A DNA stretch of 64,000 bases from Escherichia phage vB_EcoM_SQ17: sequence record MW882907, one strand, 5' to 3'. Positions 2,341-19,138 of this stretch are shown here, one piece after another (the stretch's first letter is position 1; every line of letters starts with the position of its first letter). The position numbers and the translations under genes were made by a program. The notes beneath the pieces are model-generated. The model saw only the letters and a program-made list of their open reading frames with translations, did no database searches and had not been told where the DNA came from.

Positions 2341-3303
2341 TTATTTCCAAGTCAGTTCGCAGGTCAGTTGAAGAAGCATATACATAACATGTAATTCAAT
2401 ATTACTTGCTAATCCATGAAACTTATTGTTTTCGCCTGCAATTTCGTAAAGCGAAATAATACTTTTACCAGGTGCAACTTGGTCATAACATTCTGAAACT
2501 AATTTATCGATGAACCATGAATAATCTGCGGCATATTTTGGAGCTAATGCACGAAGTTGTTTGATATCTTTGTTCTTCATTGCTTCGATAACATCAGAGA
2601 CTGTGCCACGGTCATTAGTTACGATAGACAAAATACCCGCATCAAGAACACCTTTAGACGAGTACTGGTCTAATTGACCAATTGTACGACGAAAGTCCGG
2701 GAAGTTCTTTTTAACCAGAGCTGCAACAACTTTCATATCAGCGATTTCGATATTTTCATTCTTACAGATTTCAACCATACGATGAATCATTTTCTTCATC
2801 ATCGAGATTTTATCTTCTTCGGTTGGACGACCGAATTCGATAACTCGGCAACGACTACGTAATGGTTCAATAATTCCATCGATGTTGTTAGCAGTAATAA
2901 CAATAGAGCAGTTACTAGAGAATTCTTCCATAAACGTACGAAGGTGACGTTGTGATTCGGCGAGGCCACTACGGTCAAATTCATCAATAACAATAACTTT
3001 AGGCTTGCCTTCCATTGAGACTGAACGAGCGAATGCAGTTAACGGTCCCCGTACAAAATCAATCTTACAATCAGAACCGTTGACGAACATCATTTCAGCG
3101 TTGATATCATTACATAATGCTTTTGCTACGGTTGTTTTACCTGTACCAGGAGAAGGAGAGTGCAAAATAATATGAGGAAGTTTTCCTTTAGATACTAAAG
3201 ACTTGAATGTTTCATGGTCATACGCAGGCAGAATACATTCGTCAATGGAAGAAGGACGATATTTCTGTTCTAGAATGTGTTCTTTGGAATTGATAGTAAT
3301 CAT
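2341..3303 (-). CDS. 44: clamp loader ATPase subunit gp44
   Basis: 320-aa ORF with Walker [12 protein letters not shown], Walker B VIVIDEFD and sensor motifs typical of RFC-like clamp loaders. Confidence 0.9.
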
Positions 3304-3378
3304 GTAATTTTCCTCATTATCATTAAACTGGAGGATTTCTCCTCCATAATCGTATCACAATAAACGTAAAGCTTTGAC

Positions 3379-4065
3379 TTAGAAGTCGTGAGTAGAATCG
3401 GCTTCCATCGCAATAACATAACTTACTTGAGAGCTTTCAAACTTGGCTGCAACTTTATCACCAGCTCCCCACAACATTACTTTATAGTTACCTGGCTGGA
3501 TTTTCATATTAGCCATATTGATTACGAAGTTAAAATTGTTAGAACCGTCATAATCGGTAAGAGTCAAAGAATACTTAGGACGAGTTAGTCCAGAATCTTC
3601 AACTTTATTGTAACCATTGATAACAATTTTACCATCTTTATTTGTAATAGCAATTGTATCAATCTGAAGACCACGTGAAACTCGAAGCAATTGTTGAAGG
3701 TCTTCAGCTTTAATTTCAGTAATCACAGAAGCCACTGGGAATTGAATTGGCTTATTAGGAAAAACAATGGTGCTCTTGTCAGCGGCAGGCCAATAAACCG
3801 TGGAACGTGTATCTGCAATTTTAATATTGCCATCAGTGTGCATTGAAATTTCAGCATCATCAGACACTAGACTCAAAATGCTTAAGAAGCTATTCAAATC
3901 ATAAAGTGCTACGTCAAAATCAATTTCATCAGAGATATTTGCTTCCGCATAAGTGGTGCCATTAACTGCACGAGTCATAATAAATTTACCTTGACTCAGC
4001 AGAATGCCGGAGTTAATAGAGGCAAAGTTTTTCAGAATAGCGATAGTATCTTTAGACAGTTTCAT
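3379..4065 (-). CDS. 45: sliding clamp gp45
   Basis: ATG at 4065 gives MKLSKDTIAILKNFASINSGILLSQGKFIMTRAVNG... (228 aa); matches phage sliding-clamp sequence of RB69 type from memory; track start upstream is TTG. Confidence 0.9.
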   Translation of the reverse strand: MKLSKDTIAILKNFASINSGILLSQGKFIMTRAVNGTTYAEANISDEIDFDVALYDLNSFLSILSLVSDDAEISMHTDGNIKIADTRSTVYWPAADKSTIVFPNKPIQFPVASVITEIKAEDLQQLLRVSRGLQIDTIAITNKDGKIVINGYNKVEDSGLTRPKYSLTLTDYDGSNNFNFVINMANMKIQPGNYKVMLWGAGDKVAAKFESSQVSYVIAMEADSTHDF

Positions 4066-4107
4066 TTTATTTCCTTTCAAGACAATTCAAAGTTTATAAC
4101 AAATTTA

Positions 4108-4524
4108 TTATGCAGCAACCATCTGCTTTTTAATAGCTTCAGGCAGTGATTCAATATATTCTGGAATTTTAGAAGCAACAATTTCACCAGCTGCAATTAG
4201 TTGTTCGTCGGCATCAACACAGTAGAAATCTTCCAGACGCTCAGAACCATCTTTATCAAGAACGATTTTTCCGCCAGCTTCAATAGAATCTTTATAGTGC
4301 TTACGCATCAGATGAATCCACATATCAGATACATCGTTATCAATAAAACCATAAATCATAAAACGAGTTTCTTGTGGCAAAGATTGGAGTTTTTTGGCAC
4401 TTGCGTCATCACAATGCAGGACCCATGCTTTACGAACACGATTATGGTTATGTGGGTTAGCGTCAGTACGGATAGAAGTAACTTTCAGATCAGCAGCAGT
4501 GAAACCTTTAGCAGTAGTAAACAT
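4108..4524 (-). CDS. rpbA: RNA polymerase binding protein RpbA-like
   Basis: 138-aa ORF in the T4 rpbA position between 45.2 and 45; assignment by synteny and size only. Confidence 0.5.
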   Translation of the reverse strand: MFTTAKGFTAADLKVTSIRTDANPHNHNRVRKAWVLHCDDASAKKLQSLPQETRFMIYGFIDNDVSDMWIHLMRKHYKDSIEAGGKIVLDKDGSERLEDFYCVDADEQLIAAGEIVASKIPEYIESLPEAIKKQMVAA

Positions 4525-4536
4525 ATTATTTCTCTC

Positions 4537-4737
4537 TTATTCGTAGAAGTCGGTAACTGTCCATGCGGAATTGCGATTAGACATTATTTTATTATACTCA
4601 TCTTTAAAAGCAGATTTGAGCATTTGTTCAGTAACAATATGTTCTTCACCTGAAAACGTATTGGTCAAAACATATTTTTTAATTTCAGGGACAACGAGAA
4701 GATGTTGTCCGGTTGAATACTCCATGTTGTTCTCCAT
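4537..4737 (-). CDS. hypothetical protein (45.2-like small ORF)
   Basis: 66-aa ORF, ATG start, between gene 46 and rpbA. Confidence 0.45.
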   Translation of the reverse strand: MENNMEYSTGQHLLVVPEIKKYVLTNTFSGEEHIVTEQMLKSAFKDEYNKIMSNRNSAWTVTDFYE

Positions 4738-4779
4738 TTAATTTGATGTGGTCATTATAACCACATCGTGTTAAAGCGT

Positions 4780-6468
4780 TTATGAAACAGTCATTACAGT
4801 AAATCGTCCAACTTTGCTCATTTGAAGATGTTGTCCATAAGCTTGTGGGTCATGGTCTCTGTGACTAATTATAAACACGTTTGCATCGGTTAGAGAGTTA
4901 AGAATTGTTGAAATAGCTTTAATACCTTCAGAATCAGTCGCGGAATCCATGACTTCGTCCATAATTAATGTATTGATTCTAACACCAGAGACCTTTTCAG
5001 CAATATCTCGCCATGTAAACAACAATGCGATATCGATACGCGCTTTTTCGCCTTGACTAAATGAAGCATAACTGAACTCTTCACGGCCACGTGATTTTAT
5101 AGATTCATTGAATTCTTCATCAATAGAAAACACGTAATCAGCTTCCATGATTTTAAGATAATGGTTAATCTGCTTGTTGAACAGAGGCACATATTTTTTA
5201 ATGATAGCACCTTTAATACCAGAATCTTTTAACATATCTGTGATAATACCACGATGGTATTTTTCAAGAACGATATCAGATTTTGTTTTAATGATTTTAT
5301 CAAGTTCTTTTTGAAGCAAAGCTATCTCATCGGCATGGTCGATAAATTCCGCTGAGGCTTGTTCTATTGCAGCTTTAACTTTCTTAGCTTTATCAATAGT
5401 GGCAATCATTGCTTGTTTCTTGGTACGAATATCAGATGCAAGGTCCTGTTTAGTCTTAACATTAGCTCTATATTCGTCCACTAGGACACTCAGATTATCT
5501 CTGTGACATGTAAGTTGCTCGAATGAGTGATTACATTCGTGAAGCTTATCGGTAATCTTAGAGACAATAGGATCACCCTGGTGCAACTGTGATGCACAAG
5601 TAGGACATGTGCCACCGTCATGATACATCTTAATAACTTTGTTATATGAGTCGATTTTAGATTTAATCAAGAATGCTTCTTGTCCGATCTTGTTGAATGC
5701 CTCAGTAGGGTCTTCATCAAGAACGATATTAAGTAGACGCTCGTTAGCTTCTTCGATTTCTGCTTTTAATGAACGAGCTTCTTTGGCTAGGTCGTCATAC
5801 ATATTCTGTAGACGCGCTACATTATCACCAGATAATTTCTTTTGACGTTCGATATTCTCGTTATAAATCTTAATTTGTTGGATAATACCATCTTTCTTGG
5901 CGTCGAGAACTTGTCCCTGGGAATTAAGTTCTCGAACTTGAGACTTATTGATTTTATCCATTTCAGCGAGTGTGCCGACTTCTAAAAGGTCTTCGACAAG
6001 TTTTCTACGAGCAGGGGTGCTAAGAGCCATGAAAGGGGTATACCCTGCCGTCCCAAGCACAACGATTTGTTTAAAAGACGCGTATGACATTCCGATGCTA
6101 CGTTCAAATTCTTCTTGGAAGTCACGACTGCTGGCAGATTCATCGAGACGAACACCGTCAACGGAGATTTCGAAAATATTGGGCTTTTGGCCACGTTTAA
6201 TGAAGTATTTTTTACCATCGAATTCCATCCAAAGCTCAACTAAGAGCTCTTTCTTGTTCGTGCTATTAATGATTTGCCCTTTCTTAACATCACGAAATGG
6301 TTTACCGAAAAGTCCGAAAGTAATGGCTTCTAACATCGTAGATTTACCACCACCATTTTTACCTGTGATTAAGGTCTTTTGGACTTTATCTAATTGGATA
6401 TCGATAAAATTTTGCCCAACAGACATTATATTTTTATAACGAACACGATTTAATTTAAATGTTTTCAC
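4780..6468 (-). CDS. 46: recombination endonuclease subunit gp46 (Rad50/SbcC-like ATPase)
   Basis: 562-aa ORF; N-terminal Walker A GKNGGGKST, long coiled-coil middle, C-terminal signature and Walker B LIMDEVMDS; start codon appears to be GTG. Confidence 0.9.
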   Translation of the reverse strand: MKTFKLNRVRYKNIMSVGQNFIDIQLDKVQKTLITGKNGGGKSTMLEAITFGLFGKPFRDVKKGQIINSTNKKELLVELWMEFDGKKYFIKRGQKPNIFEISVDGVRLDESASSRDFQEEFERSIGMSYASFKQIVVLGTAGYTPFMALSTPARRKLVEDLLEVGTLAEMDKINKSQVRELNSQGQVLDAKKDGIIQQIKIYNENIERQKKLSGDNVARLQNMYDDLAKEARSLKAEIEEANERLLNIVLDEDPTEAFNKIGQEAFLIKSKIDSYNKVIKMYHDGGTCPTCASQLHQGDPIVSKITDKLHECNHSFEQLTCHRDNLSVLVDEYRANVKTKQDLASDIRTKKQAMIATIDKAKKVKAAIEQASAEFIDHADEIALLQKELDKIIKTKSDIVLEKYHRGIITDMLKDSGIKGAIIKKYVPLFNKQINHYLKIMEADYVFSIDEEFNESIKSRGREEFSYASFSQGEKARIDIALLFTWRDIAEKVSGVRINTLIMDEVMDSATDSEGIKAISTILNSLTDANVFIISHRDHDPQAYGQHLQMSKVGRFTVMTVS

Positions 6469-13374: not shown

Positions 13375-13845
13375 TTAATCATGTTTCCACACCCCATCGG
13401 TATTTGACCAAAGTCGCTGATTATCTGATCCTCGCCACAGCTTTTTAGTCGGAAGATTTTTCTCATACTTCCCATCAATAATAACATCAACATATTTAAG
13501 CATTTCTAGTTGTTTAATATCTTCAAACTTATATCCTGTCCACAACCAAATGCTTTTATTAGGATAAAGATTTTTTACTGTTTGAACGATGCAATGAACA
13601 ACATCTCGGTTATCAGGATAGAGAGGGTCACCTCCGGTTATAGTCAATCCTTCTATATAATCATTATTCAAGCATTCAATTAATTGTTCTAGTGTCTCTC
13701 CAGTGAATGGAATGCCATTTCTAGCATTCCATGTTGATTTATTATAACACCCTTCGCATTTATGCAAACAACCTGTAACGAAAAGAACGACCCTGCATCC
13801 AGGGCCATTCACAAAATCGCAAGGATAAAATCTATCATAATTCAT
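13375..13845 (-). CDS. nrdG: anaerobic ribonucleotide reductase activating protein NrdG (radical SAM)
   Basis: 156-aa ORF with CLHKCEGC radical-SAM cysteine cluster; ATGA overlap with nrdD stop. Confidence 0.9.
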   Translation of the reverse strand: MNYDRFYPCDFVNGPGCRVVLFVTGCLHKCEGCYNKSTWNARNGIPFTGETLEQLIECLNNDYIEGLTITGGDPLYPDNRDVVHCIVQTVKNLYPNKSIWLWTGYKFEDIKQLEMLKYVDVIIDGKYEKNLPTKKLWRGSDNQRLWSNTDGVWKHD

Positions 13846-16704
13846 TGGTGTTTAACCCTATGCATGATTTCTTTATTTTTACCGAGATTAAATCCGCGTT
13901 CGTTCGGATTTCCCAAATAACCGCATGTTCTTCTTATAGTATTCATCTTTTTAGGATCACTTTCTCCACAAACTGAACAAACAAATCCGTTTTCAGTAGG
14001 AGTCATTTCATGGGTACTTCCACATGTAAAACATTTATCTACTGGCATATTAACACCAAAATAATCTAAATGTTGTGCAGCATAATCCCACACGGCCTCA
14101 AGACCTTTTAGGTTATTTTTCATATCAGGAAGTTCAACATAAGAAATGTGACCGCCTGTCGCAATGAAATGATATGGGGCTTCGCGAGAAATCTTTTCAA
14201 ACGGAGTAATATTTTCTTCTACTGAAACATGGAAACTATTAGTGTACCAGCCTTTATCAGTAACATCTTTTACACTTCCATATTTTTCGGTATCAAGTTT
14301 ACAGAAGCGATAGCACAGGTTTTCAGCAGGAGTAGAATACAAACTAAAAGCGAATCCGGTTCTTTCAGTCCATTGTTTAAGATGAATATTCATTTTAGTT
14401 AAAATTTCTTGTCCAATATCACGACCGACAAGAATATTCAATTCGTGAATACCAATGTATCCCAAAGACACTGAACTTCTACCGTTTTTAAATAACTCAA
14501 TTATATCGTCATCAGGTTTAAGACGAACACCGAATGCACCTTCTTGGTAAAGAATAGGAGCAACAGTAGCTTTAACACCCTTTAAAGAACTAATTCTGCA
14601 CATCAATGCTTCAAAACACAGATCCATTCGTTCATTGAATAATTCAACAAATTTCTGTTCATTGAATTGTGTTCCAATATAAGAATCTAACGCAATACGA
14701 GGAAGATTCAGTGTTACAACACCAAGATTATTACGTCCATCAAGAATTTCATTACCAGTCGAATCTTTCCATACACTCAAGAAACTACGGCAACCCATTG
14801 GAGAAACAGGAACAGATGAACCAGTGATAGCTTTATTATTCTTAACTGAAATAATATCAGGATACATTCTTTTGCTTGCACACTCTAGAGCAAGCTGCTT
14901 AATATCGTAGTTCGGGTCGTCTTTATAAAGATTGACACCCTCTTCAACGAACATAACAAGTTTAGGGAAAATAGGAGATATCCCATTGCGACCAAGACCT
15001 TTAATACGATTTTTCAGAATTGCTTTTTGAATCATTCGTTCAGTCCAGTCAGTTCCCGTACCAAATGTAATTGTTACAAAAGGCGTTTGTCCATTAGAGC
15101 TGAAAAGTGTATTTACTTCATCATTATATTCAGCATGAGTCGCAAATTCATGCCCGTTTATATGAAACAACAAAATTTGGATAGTCCATAGATATGCAAC
15201 GTTCTTTTATAGTGCTAGGATGAAAATTTAGCGCTTTAGCTGCTTCTATATAAGACGTATACTTAATACCGTCAACAACCACATATTCAGGAACTTTATG
15301 AATAGTAGTCTTAATACTCAAAACAAGAGGATGAGTTTCGACTTCACTTTCAGTGCAATTTAAATATTCCGCTGCTTTTTTAAAACTTCTAAAAGTTTTA
15401 TTTTTAAGCTTTATCGATACTTGTTTTTTACTTTTTCGACTATTGATATTATTTTGCACATGTTCCTTAGATCTTCCGTTTTTAGCATAATATTCAGCTA
15501 CAGAAGATTTTATATTGTTTTTATGAGATTCGGATAACACTTTACCCTTATGAGCATCTCTTAATTTTTGAATATGTTCTTCAGTATCCGGATGCTTATA
15601 AAACTTTTTACCGCCTATGGATTTATTTAAACACTTTTTGCTATAAAAATATTTACGTATGACCTCTTCTTCATGTTTTAATGCATCTTTATAACTATCA
15701 AATGTTTTTAAAATTATCCATTTAGTAGGTGTATCAGTTTTTAAGCGTTCATTTATATACTTAGATGACGTTGTGTAAGTTTTCCAGTTTGTGGGCTTGT
15801 TTTTAATTGTTCTAAATTTTTTATAACCGATATAAATGTCACCATTAGAAAACTTAACTAAGTATGTAAATGCGTCTTTATCTTTTATTTTAGTACAACG
15901 TCTTTTTATCCATTTCATTGTTTCACCTCGTATTCATAAGATAATCTTATTTATACAAGATGACTGCTGCATGTCGCCATGCAGATTAGACTATATCTTC
16001 ATCTTTCGATGCCGGCCGTTTCGAATAGCATTAGCTTCTATTCTACACCGCTACATTCATCACGGTTAGTCGTTAGGCATTTAGTTCAAAAGAACATTTA
16101 GCACGGGATTGTCTACTAGAGAGGTTCCCCGTTTAGACCGGTTTTACATGAGCCTGAATTAAATTAACTCATACGCCTGGAATGCATCGTATACGTCTTT
16201 TTCTGTTTTAGATTGGGCGTAATTCAACGCATCAGCGATTTGCCATTTTTCTGCATCTTCAACATGTTTAGCGTATGTGCGTTTAACATAAGGAGAAAGT
16301 ACTTTATCTACATTAGCAAATGTAGTTCCGCCGTACTGGTGTGAAGCAACTTGTGCAGTAATTTGTGCCATAATTGCAGTAGCAACACCAATCGATTTAG
16401 GCGTTTCAATTTGAGCATTACCTAGCTTAAATCCGTTTTCAAGCATTCCTTTTAAATCTACTAAACAACAATTAGTAAATGGAAGAGCAGGGGAATAATC
16501 AATATCATGGAAATGGATAATTCCACTTTCATGTGCTTTCATAATAAAAGACGGGACCATATTTTTGGCAATGTGCTTAGACACAATACCAGCCATAAGG
16601 TCCCGTTGAGTTGGAAAAACACGAGAATCTTTATTAGCATTCTCGTTCAAAAGATCTTTATTAGTTTTATGAATTAATCCTTCAATTTCTTTTTCAATTT
16701 TCAT
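13842..16704 (-). CDS. nrdD: anaerobic ribonucleoside-triphosphate reductase NrdD, interrupted by a group I intron
   Basis: Exon 1 about 16165..16704 (MKIEKEIEGLIHK...), exon 2 about 13842..15110 ending with glycyl-radical motif RRTCGYLG; the two reading frames are separated by an intron with its own ORF. Confidence 0.8.
15110..16164 (-). mobile_element. group I intron in nrdD carrying a homing endonuclease ORF (boundaries approximate)
   Basis: Non-coding GC-richer 5' core 15919..16164 contains GAAGATATAGTC (S-element-like) and AACGACUAA; ORF occupies the 3' part as in the T4 nrdD (sunY) intron. Confidence 0.6.
15148..15918 (-). CDS. intron-encoded GIY-YIG homing endonuclease (I-TevII-like)
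   Basis: 256-aa ORF, ATG start, N-terminal GIY-YIG-type motif ...FSNGDIYIGYKKF...; basic C-terminal DNA-binding region. Confidence 0.8.
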   Translation of the reverse strand: MKWIKRRCTKIKDKDAFTYLVKFSNGDIYIGYKKFRTIKNKPTNWKTYTTSSKYINERLKTDTPTKWIILKTFDSYKDALKHEEEVIRKYFYSKKCLNKSIGGKKFYKHPDTEEHIQKLRDAHKGKVLSESHKNNIKSSVAEYYAKNGRSKEHVQNNINSRKSKKQVSIKLKNKTFRSFKKAAEYLNCTESEVETHPLVLSIKTTIHKVPEYVVVDGIKYTSYIEAAKALNFHPSTIKERCISMDYPNFVVSYKRA

Positions 16705-17174
16705 TTTAAACTCTTTTTAAGCTGCTTTTTGAATGAAGCTATTAATTGTGTTTTGGTATCAGATTCATTATATTCAAATCCTCTTTGAAGCATCTCAGCC
16801 ATCATTTCCTCTTTACCTAGTCTTGAGAACTCTTTAGTTTTGTCTGGAACAAAATTAGGATGGATATTATTATCAGAATAATCTTGTTTCAAATAAGCAA
16901 GAAGAGCTTCAAGCCATTCGAGGTAGTCGACATCACGTCCTTTAAGACCGGAACGGTTGAACTTATGCTTCATTTGACCTTCTGCTGCATTGCACAGATT
17001 ACAGAGTAACCCACGAACTCTACCTGCTTTTGGCCCGTTTAATTCATGGTCGTGGTCAAGATGGTTACCTTGAACATCAGGGTCTAATTCACGGTGGCAA
17101 ATAGGACACTTACCATTCTGTGCATCATAAAATTTTTGTTTTTCTTCTTTGTATAATTTGCCAGATAATAACAT
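16701..17174 (-). CDS. 49: endonuclease VII (Holliday junction resolvase) gp49
   Basis: 157-aa ORF MLLSGKLYKEEKQKFYDAQNGKCPICHREL...HLDHDHELNGPKAGRVRGLLCNLCN; zinc-binding cysteines and catalytic His/Asp/Glu typical of T4 endo VII. Confidence 0.85.
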   Translation of the reverse strand: MLLSGKLYKEEKQKFYDAQNGKCPICHRELDPDVQGNHLDHDHELNGPKAGRVRGLLCNLCNAAEGQMKHKFNRSGLKGRDVDYLEWLEALLAYLKQDYSDNNIHPNFVPDKTKEFSRLGKEEMMAEMLQRGFEYNESDTKTQLIASFKKQLKKSLK

Positions 17175-17202
17175 AATAAACCCTTACCATATTAGATAAG
17201 GG

Positions 17203-17210
17203 TATTTATA
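17203..17210 (-). promoter_or_regulatory. late promoter (TATAAATA) upstream of gene 49
   Basis: Plus tatttata = TATAAATA on minus, about 30 nt upstream of the gene 49 ATG. Confidence 0.5.
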
Positions 17211-17212
17211 AT

Positions 17213-17392
17213 TTAATAAATGTTATAAAAGTCACGATGGAAACGTTTGTATTGGCGAATCATTCTTTTAGTAGGACGTGTTACCGAAATGATTGAAGTC
17301 CTCATGTTCGGATTGTTTGGAGCACCAATTATAACAAATTTCCAAGATTTTTGTCCGTTTGTTCTTTCGCCAAAAAATAATGCAGTTTTCAT
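17213..17392 (-). CDS. small basic protein, paralog B (below ORF-track cutoff)
   Basis: Hand translation MKTALFFGERTNGQKSWKFVIIGAPNNPNMRTSIISVTRPTKRMIRQYKRFHRDFYNIY; ATG start; paralogous to ORF 17817..17987. Confidence 0.4.
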   Translation of the reverse strand: MKTALFFGERTNGQKSWKFVIIGAPNNPNMRTSIISVTRPTKRMIRQYKRFHRDFYNIY

Positions 17393-17401
17393 AATAAGCC
17401 C

Positions 17402-17815
17402 TTAACTTAAACGTCTTTCTAAATATTCAATGTATTCCGCTGCGGCTTGCATCAGATTACCTTCATAACCGTCATTATTTTCTTGGGCGGCTAATTTAGC
17501 TAAAGCATAAGAAATACGTTCACCTTCGAATTCGCCAAGTCCACCATCACAAACTACTTGGTCAATTTCTTCGAGTTCATCTATTGAATGGGATTCCCAG
17601 AAGCACCAAAGAGAAGTATCACGGTCATAGATGCAAAGTTTCTCACCTGTGTTCAACATCACTTCGATAATGCCATGGTCGCCATAACCATCTTCGGTAG
17701 TAGTACCAATTACCTTGATGATCGTATCTTTCTTTAATTCAGGAAACTTATCTTGGAGTTCTTCGTCTTCTTTAACAATCTTGAACCATTTACCGCGAGT
17801 TTCAGAAATATTCAT
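17402..17815 (-). CDS. hypothetical acidic protein
   Basis: Track ORF trimmed to internal ATG (MNISETRGKWFKIVKEDEEL...), 137 aa; flanked on both sides by the small basic paralogs. Confidence 0.5.
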   Translation of the reverse strand: MNISETRGKWFKIVKEDEELQDKFPELKKDTIIKVIGTTTEDGYGDHGIIEVMLNTGEKLCIYDRDTSLWCFWESHSIDELEEIDQVVCDGGLGEFEGERISYALAKLAAQENNDGYEGNLMQAAAEYIEYLERRLS

Positions 17816-17816
17816 A

Positions 17817-17987
17817 TCAATATTCTCTATAAAAGTTACGATGAGAACGTTTAGCTTTGCGAAGCTGACGTTTAGTAGGACGAACTGTAAATGGTTGTCC
17901 AGAGAAAAAATTCGGATCGGTTTTAATAAGCAAATACCAATCATGCTTGCCATTTTTTAATAAACGGTATAATAATTTAACTTGCAT
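17817..17987 (-). CDS. small basic protein, paralog A
   Basis: Track ORF trimmed to ATG: MQVKLLYRLLKNGKHDWYLLIKTDPNFFSGQPFTVRPTKRQLRKAKRSHRNFYREY; shares NG(Q/K)K..W...I....PN...RPTKR...FY motif with paralog B. Confidence 0.4.
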   Translation of the reverse strand: MQVKLLYRLLKNGKHDWYLLIKTDPNFFSGQPFTVRPTKRQLRKAKRSHRNFYREY

Positions 17988-18115
17988 AATAATCTCTTCC
18001 CATTTCCATATCAATTAATTCATTTATTGAAGGTTCATCATAACACGTTTCTTCGTCATTGTAAACTGTTTCGACGTCTGGCTCGACTGTCTCCCATCGA
18101 GCCGAATACCACGGT

Positions 18116-18472
18116 TTAACCCCGGAGTTTATTGAGCTCTTCATAATCAATCCAGGATTCTAGCCCTGACGGCAGGTCACATTCAATGTTCCACAGAAGC
18201 TCTTCAATGGCTTGCAGGCGATTATATTCTTCAACGGTAATGGTAACCATTGGTGCAACCGGTTCTGCCTTTTTAACCATCATATCGTTCATCAGGACGT
18301 AAAGGTCATCACGAACAACAGTGTCGCTCCAACCCCATGATTTGGCTTCGTAAGCTAATGATGAAGGGAGCACATTTAAAACTTCAATAATAGTTGGAGC
18401 ATCAGGACCAAGTTCATTGGCACAAACTTCGTATACATCTTGGAAATCTTTAAGATTTAATGAATATGTCAT
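18116..18472 (-). CDS. hypothetical protein
   Basis: 118-aa ORF, ATG start, overlaps nrdC start by 4 nt. Confidence 0.5.
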   Translation of the reverse strand: MTYSLNLKDFQDVYEVCANELGPDAPTIIEVLNVLPSSLAYEAKSWGWSDTVVRDDLYVLMNDMMVKKAEPVAPMVTITVEEYNRLQAIEELLWNIECDLPSGLESWIDYEELNKLRG

Positions 18473-18732
18473 TTAAAATATTCTCGTAGTTGGTCAAAGC
18501 CACCGATCGAAGTTCCATCAGGAGCAAACACTTGAGGCATAGTCAATCCGACTTGTGATTCACGTCCAAGCTTAACCAGAAGCTCAGCAATTTTCTCATC
18601 ATCAAAAACACCTTTTTCCGGCATAACATTAATGAATTCGAATGGTTGTTTCTTAACAGTCAGCAATCGTTTCGCATTATCACAATAAATGCATTTATGA
18701 ATAGTAGAGTCATACCCGTACACTTTAAACAT
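18469..18732 (-). CDS. nrdC: thioredoxin/glutaredoxin NrdC
   Basis: MFKVYGYDSTIHKCIYCDNAKRLL... with CxxC active site, 87 aa from the second in-frame ATG. Confidence 0.8.
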   Translation of the reverse strand: MFKVYGYDSTIHKCIYCDNAKRLLTVKKQPFEFINVMPEKGVFDDEKIAELLVKLGRESQVGLTMPQVFAPDGTSIGGFDQLREYFK

Positions 18733-19138
18733 TATTTTTCCTTTCATCGATTAAATATGCAATGCCAAATACAATACATGTAATAAAACCTGTGATACAG
18801 ATAGAAACCAACAACACTGTACCAAAGAACCAAATCAAGTTATCTTTAGTAGTTTGTTTGATATCCATCTCACGAATTTCTATAGCTATCGTATCACCTT
18901 TATTCAGAAGCGTATAAAACGATGGCGATACACGCATGTCAAAAACTCGTCCTTGCTCATCTTTATAGACTGCAATAAATTCTAATTTAGAATATTTTCC
19001 TGTAGATTGGCCTGAGATTAATTCCACTACCTCCACAGGAATTACTTTAGTTTCCATGTAAGTATTCTGGCTGTTCCAAATGAATGGAATGATGGCAAAA
19101 ACTAAAGCTGCAATAAAACAACGAAGGCTATATCTCAT
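18725..19138 (-). CDS. membrane protein
   Basis: 137-aa ORF with N- and C-terminal hydrophobic helices (LRCFIAALVFAIIPFIW; IWFFGTVLLVSICITGFITCIVFGIAYLI). Confidence 0.5.
   Translation of the reverse strand: MRYSLRCFIAALVFAIIPFIWNSQNTYMETKVIPVEVVELISGQSTGKYSKLEFIAVYKDEQGRVFDMRVSPSFYTLLNKGDTIAIEIREMDIKQTTKDNLIWFFGTVLLVSICITGFITCIVFGIAYLIDERKNNV

Follow-up and report, generated by a model that had tools for sequence, protein, structure and literature searches.

Paralogous DUF7279 genes on either side of the predicted Lon inhibitor gene pinA in Escherichia phage vB_EcoM_SQ17: family, locus history and a candidate role

In Escherichia phage vB_EcoM_SQ17 (sequence record MW882907; the stretch of 64,000 nucleotides analysed here is called the window) two small basic open reading frames (ORFs), A and B, bracket an acidic gene upstream of the endonuclease VII gene. 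The original prediction saw in this arrangement a local duplication that places one basic partner on each side of an acidic gene, which raises the question of what the three genes are, how the bracket came about and whether its parts act together. The account proposed here is that A and B are old paralogs of a single phage family, DUF7279, that the gene between them is pinA, which is predicted to encode an inhibitor of the host protease Lon, that recombination and fusion among relatives have reshaped the locus, and that the small proteins are candidates for a role linked to Lon or PinA. Taken as a whole this account is probably correct; its functional part is advanced more tentatively. The elements at issue are the following:

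17213-17392, minus strand: ORF A, 59 amino acid residues (aa), DUF7279 / phrog_3272 (= RB69ORF087c, JS09_099), between pinA and gene 49
17402-17815, minus strand: pinA, 137 aa, predicted host Lon protease inhibitor (PF10465, phrog_2167)
17817-17987, minus strand: ORF B, 56 aa, DUF7279 / phrog_3272 (= RB69ORF089c), between 49.1 and pinA
17224-17278, minus strand: direct-repeat arm, 3' part of ORF A (codons RPTK...FY)
17828-17882, minus strand: direct-repeat arm, 3' part of ORF B

Both small ORFs are present on the minus strand as predicted, and the proposed kinship between them is borne out by formal alignment. BLASTP aligns them over their whole length with 21 of 59 residues identical (36%, E=4e-11), and their Smith-Waterman score of 92 compares with 23 +/- 4.5 (maximum 56) in 5000 shuffles (z=15.5). 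The motifs by which they were first recognised, NG(Q/K)K..W and RPTKR...HR(N/D)FY, correspond to invariant columns of the family alignment, namely G13, W17, P28, R39-P40-T41-K42, R46, K49-R50, H52-R53 and F55-Y56. The DNA similarity noted over about 60 nucleotides (nt) proved to be a 55-nt direct repeat (17224-17278 and 17828-17882) with 78% identity and a spacing of 604; this is the top direct repeat of the region, and its 43 matches in 55 positions exceed the 32 of the best among 300 codon-shuffled controls (mean 27.4). The contrast in charge is likewise real, the isoelectric point (pI) and net charge being 11.4 and +10 for A, 10.8 and +11 for B, and 4.3 and -17 for the 137-aa protein between them, and the gene downstream does encode endonuclease VII (PF02945 and PF09124). 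No third copy was found in the 64-kb window.

The only Pfam match of either ORF is PF23945 (DUF7279; model of 53 positions, gathering threshold 24.5 bits), to which A aligns with 53.8 bits (residues 10-56) and B with 54.5 bits (residues 7-53). Both also match phrog_3272 from end to end (1-59/59), with E=1.8e-30 for A and E=5.8e-27 for B. Members of the family are proteins of 54-61 aa with a pI of about 11. Pairwise ratios of non-synonymous to synonymous substitution rates (dN/dS) between orthologs are 0.06-0.23 for A (four genera) and 0.00-0.11 for B, and because these values are low the ORFs can be taken to encode proteins. Among 409 phage records matching B, a set that combines B-type, hybrid and A-type copies, 407 match 80% or more of the query in a single place, and the ORFs accordingly look intact; ORF B itself is found at an identity of at least 80% in about 145 phage records. 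These comparisons identify A and B as real, protein-coding, old paralogs. They are already catalogued: proteins 100% identical to them have been deposited from JS09, PNJ-6, JQD51 and others, they carry RB69 ORF names, and they belong to one Pfam and one PHROG family. In JS09 and RB69 both are labelled as hypothetical proteins, and the middle gene is labelled Pin.

Beyond these relatives the family has a narrow range. A word-indexed search of 5.8 billion proteins returned near-identical proteins only, and HMMER, run exhaustively over 1.84 billion cluster representatives, yielded four real clusters together with an ankyrin artefact. The latter, the second-best HMMER match (P0008), is a 1685-aa ankyrin-repeat protein with 14 weak 'NGH..VALVLLEAKADPNM' matches resembling 'NGQKSWKFVIIGAPNNPNM'; since DUF7279 is predicted to be beta in structure and not built of ankyrin helices, this match was put down to the repeats and rejected as an artefact. 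Profile search of the PDB revealed no true sequence relative; its matches to designed beta-propeller 'Bagel' proteins through the repeated hairpin 'LYAINPNGKLKWKF' agree only on the N-terminal NG-turn hairpin of DUF7279 and were discarded as an artefact. NCBIfam gave no significant match for A or B, and PADLOC none for A, B or PinA. DUF7279 appears by these searches to be confined to the Tevenvirinae (T4-type enterobacterial phages), and no paper mentioning it was found in the literature searched for the family and for the RB69 ORF names.

The middle gene matches PF10465 (peptidase inhibitor I24) with 160.2 bits over positions 2-136 of the 136 in the model, where the gathering threshold is 27 bits, and phrog_2167 with E=3.6e-51. 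These matches identify it as pinA, the predicted ortholog of T4 pin (P07068), a Lon protease inhibitor. T4 PinA binds to Lon, whose ATPase and proteolytic activities it inhibits (Hilliard et al. 1998, as cited in PMC8835725), and through orthology the PinA of the window may be expected to bind and inhibit Lon as well.

The history of the locus emerges from its relatives. The 2-kb stretch round it has 768 matching phage records and shares 99.5% identity with Escherichia phage vB_EcoM_JS09, a member of the RB69-like genus Mosigvirus among the T4-type phages, and the window accordingly belongs to the same genus. The order pin, DUF7279, gene 49 recurs in Tequatrovirus G50, Dhakavirus JS98, Gaprivervirus VR20, Mosigvirus G2285 and Moonvirus Merlin, the Merlin member at the pin-49 junction being a distant DUF7279, and a sixth genus, Gelderlandvirus (S16, CGG4-1), retains rearranged traces only. 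The protein of ORF A shares 59% identity with its G50 counterpart, 53% with that of JS98 and only 38% with ORF B (a comparison separate from the BLASTP alignment that gave 36%). Since A is nearer to the single copies of other genera than to B, A is ancestral and the split between A and B old. Copy A is the ancestral occupant of the pin-49 junction across the six genera, the rearranged Gelderlandvirus included, and copy B is an extra one that occurs in Mosigvirus records and in metagenomic contigs related to them.

Four states were recognised among Mosigvirus records, in counts that are approximate, include GenBank/RefSeq duplicates and derive from identity bands and place counts: both copies (about 45 records), A only (about 10, e.g. 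G2285), B only with pin (about 70, e.g. PhAPEC2), and a single hybrid gene without pin (about 28, e.g. SHSML-52-1 and phiE142, both with a B::A hybrid). T4 has neither copy. The existence of several interconvertible states among close relatives means that the three genes are not an obligate module, and both copies are dispensable, having been repeatedly lost, truncated or fused. The notion that an unusual duplication at this locus has built a basic/acidic/basic unit could thus not be upheld: the copies are old, the acidic gene is the known pinA, whose T4 product works alone in vitro, and the bracket is one of several states.

The hybrid gene suggests how pinA is lost. In SHSML-52-1 and phiE142 it follows B up to ...HRNFY and A thereafter (NIY/NVY), the junction lying within the shared CATCGTnACTTTTATA of the conserved 3' ends, and it directly precedes the gene 49 late promoter. 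A crossover between the copies, which form direct repeats, would delete the 604 bp of their spacing, removing pinA and the body of A and leaving a B::A hybrid of the kind seen in about 28 database records. Pin-less Mosigviruses are best explained by such recombination between the flanking paralogs, a route that was not found in the literature searched.

Other rearrangements have joined DUF7279 to pinA itself. T4 PinA (NC_000866 46897-47382) is a protein of 161 aa ending ...SFSDR|MIQQYKRLHQMFYNT (fuller pre-junction sequence EWLETQISFSDR). The locus of G50 (1555-2177 of the locus sequence) encodes a 148-aa PinA ending ...ISFSDRAF and then a 58-aa DUF7279 protein ending ...PTKK|MIRQYKRLHRMFYNT. 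Past the junction the DNA of the two phages is nearly identical, which indicates that a deletion has fused T4 pin in frame to the final 15 codons of copy A. The tail of T4 PinA is on this comparison derived from DUF7279, an origin that the literature searched did not report. The T4-type junction is present in 194 records, including T2, RB3, RB55, RB59 and phages of Yersinia, Shigella and Salmonella, and a separate DUF7279 gene of the type that supplied the tail still exists in about 300 other records, mostly from Tequatrovirus. In JB75 the T4-type fusion is followed by a remnant of the pin 3' end and then by a complete DUF7279 copy.

A Logan contig (P0015) carries a Mosigvirus-type pinA that ends ...EYLERR|FHRDFYNVY, joined at an ACGTTT microhomology; this is a second fusion, independent of the T4 type. 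In a further case a 191-aa protein (P0013) consists of a complete B and a complete PinA, joined through the loss of one T in TATTGATATG. Two metagenomic contigs carry the B::PinA fusion, and since 12 of their 2090 nt are different, it is inherited and not a sequencing error. In S16 the first approximately 15 residues of gp48.2 match the pin start of CGG4-1 and the remainder is the C-terminal half of a Merlin-type DUF7279, and CGG4-1 itself has kept pin with the small gene reduced to a 15-codon remnant. The four in-frame fusions were considered as a sign of selection on the tail, an argument rejected on the ground that most of them were found by protein similarity, which biases the sample.

Several arrangements round pin in other genera were noted in passing. 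In S16 (2929-4898 of the locus sequence) gp48.1, a second DUF7279 gene directly after 49.1, and gp48.2 bracket the 116-aa gp48.3 (phrog_13441), and a 361-aa homing endonuclease occupies the place that gene 49 has in other genera. The PinA of JS98 (1329-1804 of the locus sequence) seems to be split and permuted, a 57-aa gene for the C-terminal module (phrog_9092) coming first and a 100-aa gene that matches PF10465 positions 3-74 (E=3e-6) second. VR20 (1359-1801 of the locus sequence) has a similar 57-aa Pin-like gene followed by an 89-aa gene with a weak FeoA-like match. Comparison of S16 gp48.3 and VR20_081 with the PinA profile by hhalign was not significant, so that kinship of gp48.3 with PinA is unsupported.

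The surroundings of the three genes and the signals that may control their expression are as follows:

18469-18747, minus strand: nrdC
18116-18472, minus strand: RB69ORF091c-like gene, 118 aa
17977-18144, minus strand: 49.1 homolog, 55 aa, acidic, upstream neighbour of ORF B (phrog_2382)
18065-18037, minus strand: predicted T4-early-type promoter inside 49.1 (GTTTACA, 17 nt, TG-TATGAT; consensus match)
17210-17203, minus strand: T4 late promoter motif TATAAATA, 2 nt past the ORF A stop
17203-17180, minus strand: hairpin ACCCTTA...TAAGGGT, 9 pairs, containing the gene 49 Shine-Dalgarno sequence
17172-17191, 17390-17409 and 17985-18004: initiation-region repeats (GGnAAGnGnTTATTATG, coding strand) of gene 49, ORF A and ORF B
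16701-17174, minus strand: gene 49, endonuclease VII, downstream neighbour (PF02945 and PF09124)
16159-16704, minus strand: nrdD N-terminal piece

Every gene at the locus lies on the minus strand, and the expression signals listed are consensus matches. The early promoter within 49.1 is annotated as such in SA79RD, and the same promoter sequence is kept in T4 49.1. The first ORF lying wholly downstream of this promoter is ORF B. An overlap of 11 nt joins its start to the end of 49.1, a single nucleotide separates its stop from the pinA ATG (TGAtATG), and ORF A begins 9 nt past the pinA stop. This layout suggests that ORF B, pinA and ORF A form one tightly packed early operon read from the predicted promoter in 49.1, and A and B are probably co-expressed early with pinA. 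The late promoter before gene 49 is also annotated in SA79RD and is invariant in all relatives aligned except PhAPEC2, and the gene 49 hairpin is conserved across the relatives aligned. Barth et al. 1988 reportedly applied hairpin regulation of the ribosome-binding site to gene 49. Sequestration of this site by a hairpin, combined with a promoter, is a known T4 means of limiting translation to late transcripts (PMC2988022). A scan of 16500-18800 against Rfam returned sub-threshold noise only.

In PhAPEC2 (2386-2422 of the locus sequence) the deletion of A that characterises B-only phages ends inside the late promoter, which reads AATAAATA and not TATAAATA; late transcription of gene 49 may be weaker in these phages. 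Round the starts of gene 49, ORF A and ORF B the sequence follows a common pattern, GGnAAGnGnTTATTATG; these 20-mers are 80-85% identical and could represent a third short repeat family and a possible site of recombination. The gene nrdD is in two pieces (13842-16704, minus strand), an N-terminal one of 181 aa at 16159-16704 and a 443-aa ORF at 13842-15173 that is assumed to be the C-terminal part. It is split by a free-standing ORF for a GIY-YIG/NUMOD1 (SegE-like) homing endonuclease (15148-15918), about 1.3 kb from the locus, and repair induced by this endonuclease could promote the local recombination seen among relatives. The C-terminal 55 residues of the RB69ORF091c-like protein match phrog_3402 with E=1e-32, a family that bears the label 'antitoxin from a toxin-antitoxin system', and also, weakly, T7 gp5.9 (RecBCD inhibitor); a sub-threshold SopD2 match of this protein was the sole trace in the PADLOC and NCBIfam scans. 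Its halves resemble the separate S16 genes gp50.3 and gp50.1 in translations compared by eye, and this neighbour would be another case of fusion or fission.

For the small proteins themselves, an AlphaFold2 model built from eight sequences only (predicted local distance difference test, pLDDT, of 85) has a beta-beta-beta-alpha order, with strands at 2-9, 15-22 and 31-36 and a C-terminal helix at 42-58. The fold of DUF7279 is accordingly modelled as a three-stranded beta-sheet followed by a basic amphipathic C-terminal helix that ends in aromatics: RPTK(R/K) caps the predicted helix, R46, K49/R50 and H52/R53 line it, and F55/Y56 stand at its end. The aromatic-rich C-termini (H-x-x-F-Y-x-x-Y, F-Y-N-T, F-N-F, Y-W-L-Y) are conserved in the family, though predicted to be helical. 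The best fold matches in BFVD are uncharacterised small proteins of other T4-type phages, Salmonella S16, Serratia CBH8 and Citrobacter Merlin (template-modelling score 0.82-0.88). Comparison with known nucleic-acid-binding folds (double-stranded RNA-binding domain, Sso7d/SH3-like, ribbon-helix-helix and others) gave no significant match, in structure or in sequence, to any solved representative.

Whether these proteins work together with PinA is the remaining part of the question. Our best guess, offered tentatively, is that DUF7279 proteins act in the PinA pathway of host Lon blockade. Whether as separate proteins or as part of a PinA fusion, they would use the basic C-terminal helix with its aromatic tip to bind the acidic PinA and/or the N-domain of Lon. 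It is likely that the conserved Arg/Lys face of the modelled helix binds a polyanionic partner of some kind, and this is likelier than any specific partner. Adjacency to pinA is unbroken over six genera, and the proteins are of opposite charge (+10 and +11 vs -17). The recurrent fusions, one of them full-length, lend some support by the Rosetta-stone argument. In addition, the basic helix ends in aromatics that are predicted to be exposed, and C-termini of this kind may be compared with those that Lon is known to recognise. The Lon N-domain docks exposed aromatic or hydrophobic C-termini, e.g. that of Sul20, ...KIHSNLYH (PMC8087443), and LarA, a small regulator of Lon, acts on it by a tail of this kind that follows a C-terminal helix (PMC10665427).

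A number of observations weigh against a partnership with PinA or Lon. Tight packing, overlapping starts and stops and conserved synteny are the norm in T4-type genomes and prove little. The list of fusions is biased to in-frame events, most of which were found by protein similarity, and a 1-nt deletion joining two genes that lie 1 nt apart can be neutral. pinA exists without a full DUF7279 copy in the T4 type and in CGG4-1, and an intact DUF7279 hybrid exists without pinA in about 28 records; as each partner is found alone, any partnership is not obligate. The PinA tails of T4 and RB3 differ by four non-synonymous and no synonymous changes, which argues against strong constraint on the tail. 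The AlphaFold2 model of T4-type PinA is poor (pLDDT 62, about 50 in the tail; predicted template-modelling score 0.45), and docking could not be read from it. Finally, a pI of 11 and an Arg/Lys-rich helix fit a nucleic-acid binder equally well.

This last point leads to the strongest competitor, in which the small proteins A and B serve early host takeover or regulation independently of PinA, attach to DNA or RNA by the Arg/Lys side of the helix and share with pinA only inherited synteny; we regard it as possible, if on the unlikely side. It accounts for the high charge of such short proteins (+10 and +11 net over 56-59 residues, pI about 11), for the placement of the invariant RPTK(R/K), R46, K49-R50 and H52-R53 on one predicted helix, for the retention of an intact hybrid in the approximately 28 pinA-less records and for the functioning of pinA without a full DUF7279 copy in T4-type phages, and the neighbouring genes look like a mixture of early accessory and anti-host functions. 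It leaves the recurrent pinA fusions unexplained, though these are possibly neutral accidents.

A role of the reading frame in cis is improbable. In that scheme the ORF at the position of A ends just before the gene 49 hairpin, and terminating ribosomes would open the hairpin and so couple early translation of gene 49, the encoded protein as such being of little importance. The ORF stop does lie no more than about 12 nt from the hairpin in every variant examined, whether the ORF is A (window), pin::tail (T4), pin (PhAPEC2) or the hybrid (SHSML-52-1), the native stop is kept in all four deletion derivatives, and hairpin sequestration of the ribosome-binding site, relieved in late transcripts, is established in T4 (PMC2988022). 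But dN/dS values of 0.06-0.23 over the whole ORF, together with invariant residues far from the 3' end, imply selection at the protein level; copy B is equally constrained and is not beside gene 49, and out-of-frame fusions would stop only 20-45 nt upstream, so that the requirement for a frame is weak.

Very improbable is a toxin-antitoxin-like module in which recently duplicated small basic toxins are neutralised by the acidic protein, as the opposite charges and tight translational coupling might suggest. With only 36% identity between A and B, and with A nearer to orthologs of other genera, the duplication is an old one. PinA, which stands in the middle, has a known target; viable phages carry one, two or none of the copies; and A, B and PinA lack PADLOC or NCBIfam matches. 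The parts of the module do not co-occur obligatorily either, since phages exist with A only, with B only, with pin only, and with DUF7279 but no pin. That A and B are spurious or decaying ORFs without function, as their small size, the lack of a characterised homolog and their frequent loss among relatives might imply, is hardly credible in view of purifying selection, the intact appearance of 407 of 409 records, a confident predicted fold and conservation of the family across six genera.

The preferred reading, a DUF7279 role in the PinA pathway, can be extended to a stronger and rather unlikely form in which these proteins would be dedicated, separable anti-Lon subunits that dock on the Lon N-domain by degron mimicry and/or on PinA and thereby tune or target inhibition. 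If this were true, T4 PinA would be a natural chimera with an absorbed docking tail, the published biochemistry would describe a fusion protein, and the flanking copies would be a built-in recombination switch by which phage populations shed and regain pinA.

As A and B are catalogued hypothetical proteins, the finding that they are paralogs adds little in itself. Of more consequence is that T4 PinA, the only PinA studied biochemically, ends in a 15-residue remnant of a neighbouring gene that most other PinA orthologs do not carry, and structure-function work on Lon inhibition should allow for this tail. The recurrent fusions also provide a testable hypothesis for an uncharacterised T-even family, namely that its partner is PinA or Lon. 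The locus moreover offers a clean natural case in which paralogs acting as direct repeats would delete an anti-host gene, with all intermediate states present in sequenced phages.

Three known systems invite comparison. The first is T4 PinA, of which the window gene is the predicted ortholog and whose last 15 residues (MIQQYKRLHQMFYNT) are homologous to the DUF7279 C-terminal helix. Unlike it, the window PinA has 137 aa, ends ...EYLERRLS and lacks a DUF7279-type tail, and DUF7279 is present in the window as two separate complete genes whereas T4 has no complete copy. The second comprises Sul20 (the SulA degron) and LarA, short proteins or tags with an aromatic or hydrophobic C-terminus. The likeness would be functional only: DUF7279 has no sequence homology to them and no terminal histidine, and its aromatics lie inside a helix in the AlphaFold2 model and not in a free tail. 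The third is the shuffling of hyperplastic regions by PeSL (PMC2839356, PMC4122927). The locus lies in the variable accessory region from gene 49 to nrdC, where genes are similarly gained and lost through recombination between short repeats. PeSL were not found at both borders, the only substantial direct repeat being the coding 55-mer and the early-promoter-like site being on one side only. The locus differs from PeSL cassettes in that its recombining repeats are the coding 3' ends of paralogs together with microhomologies of 2-8 nt.

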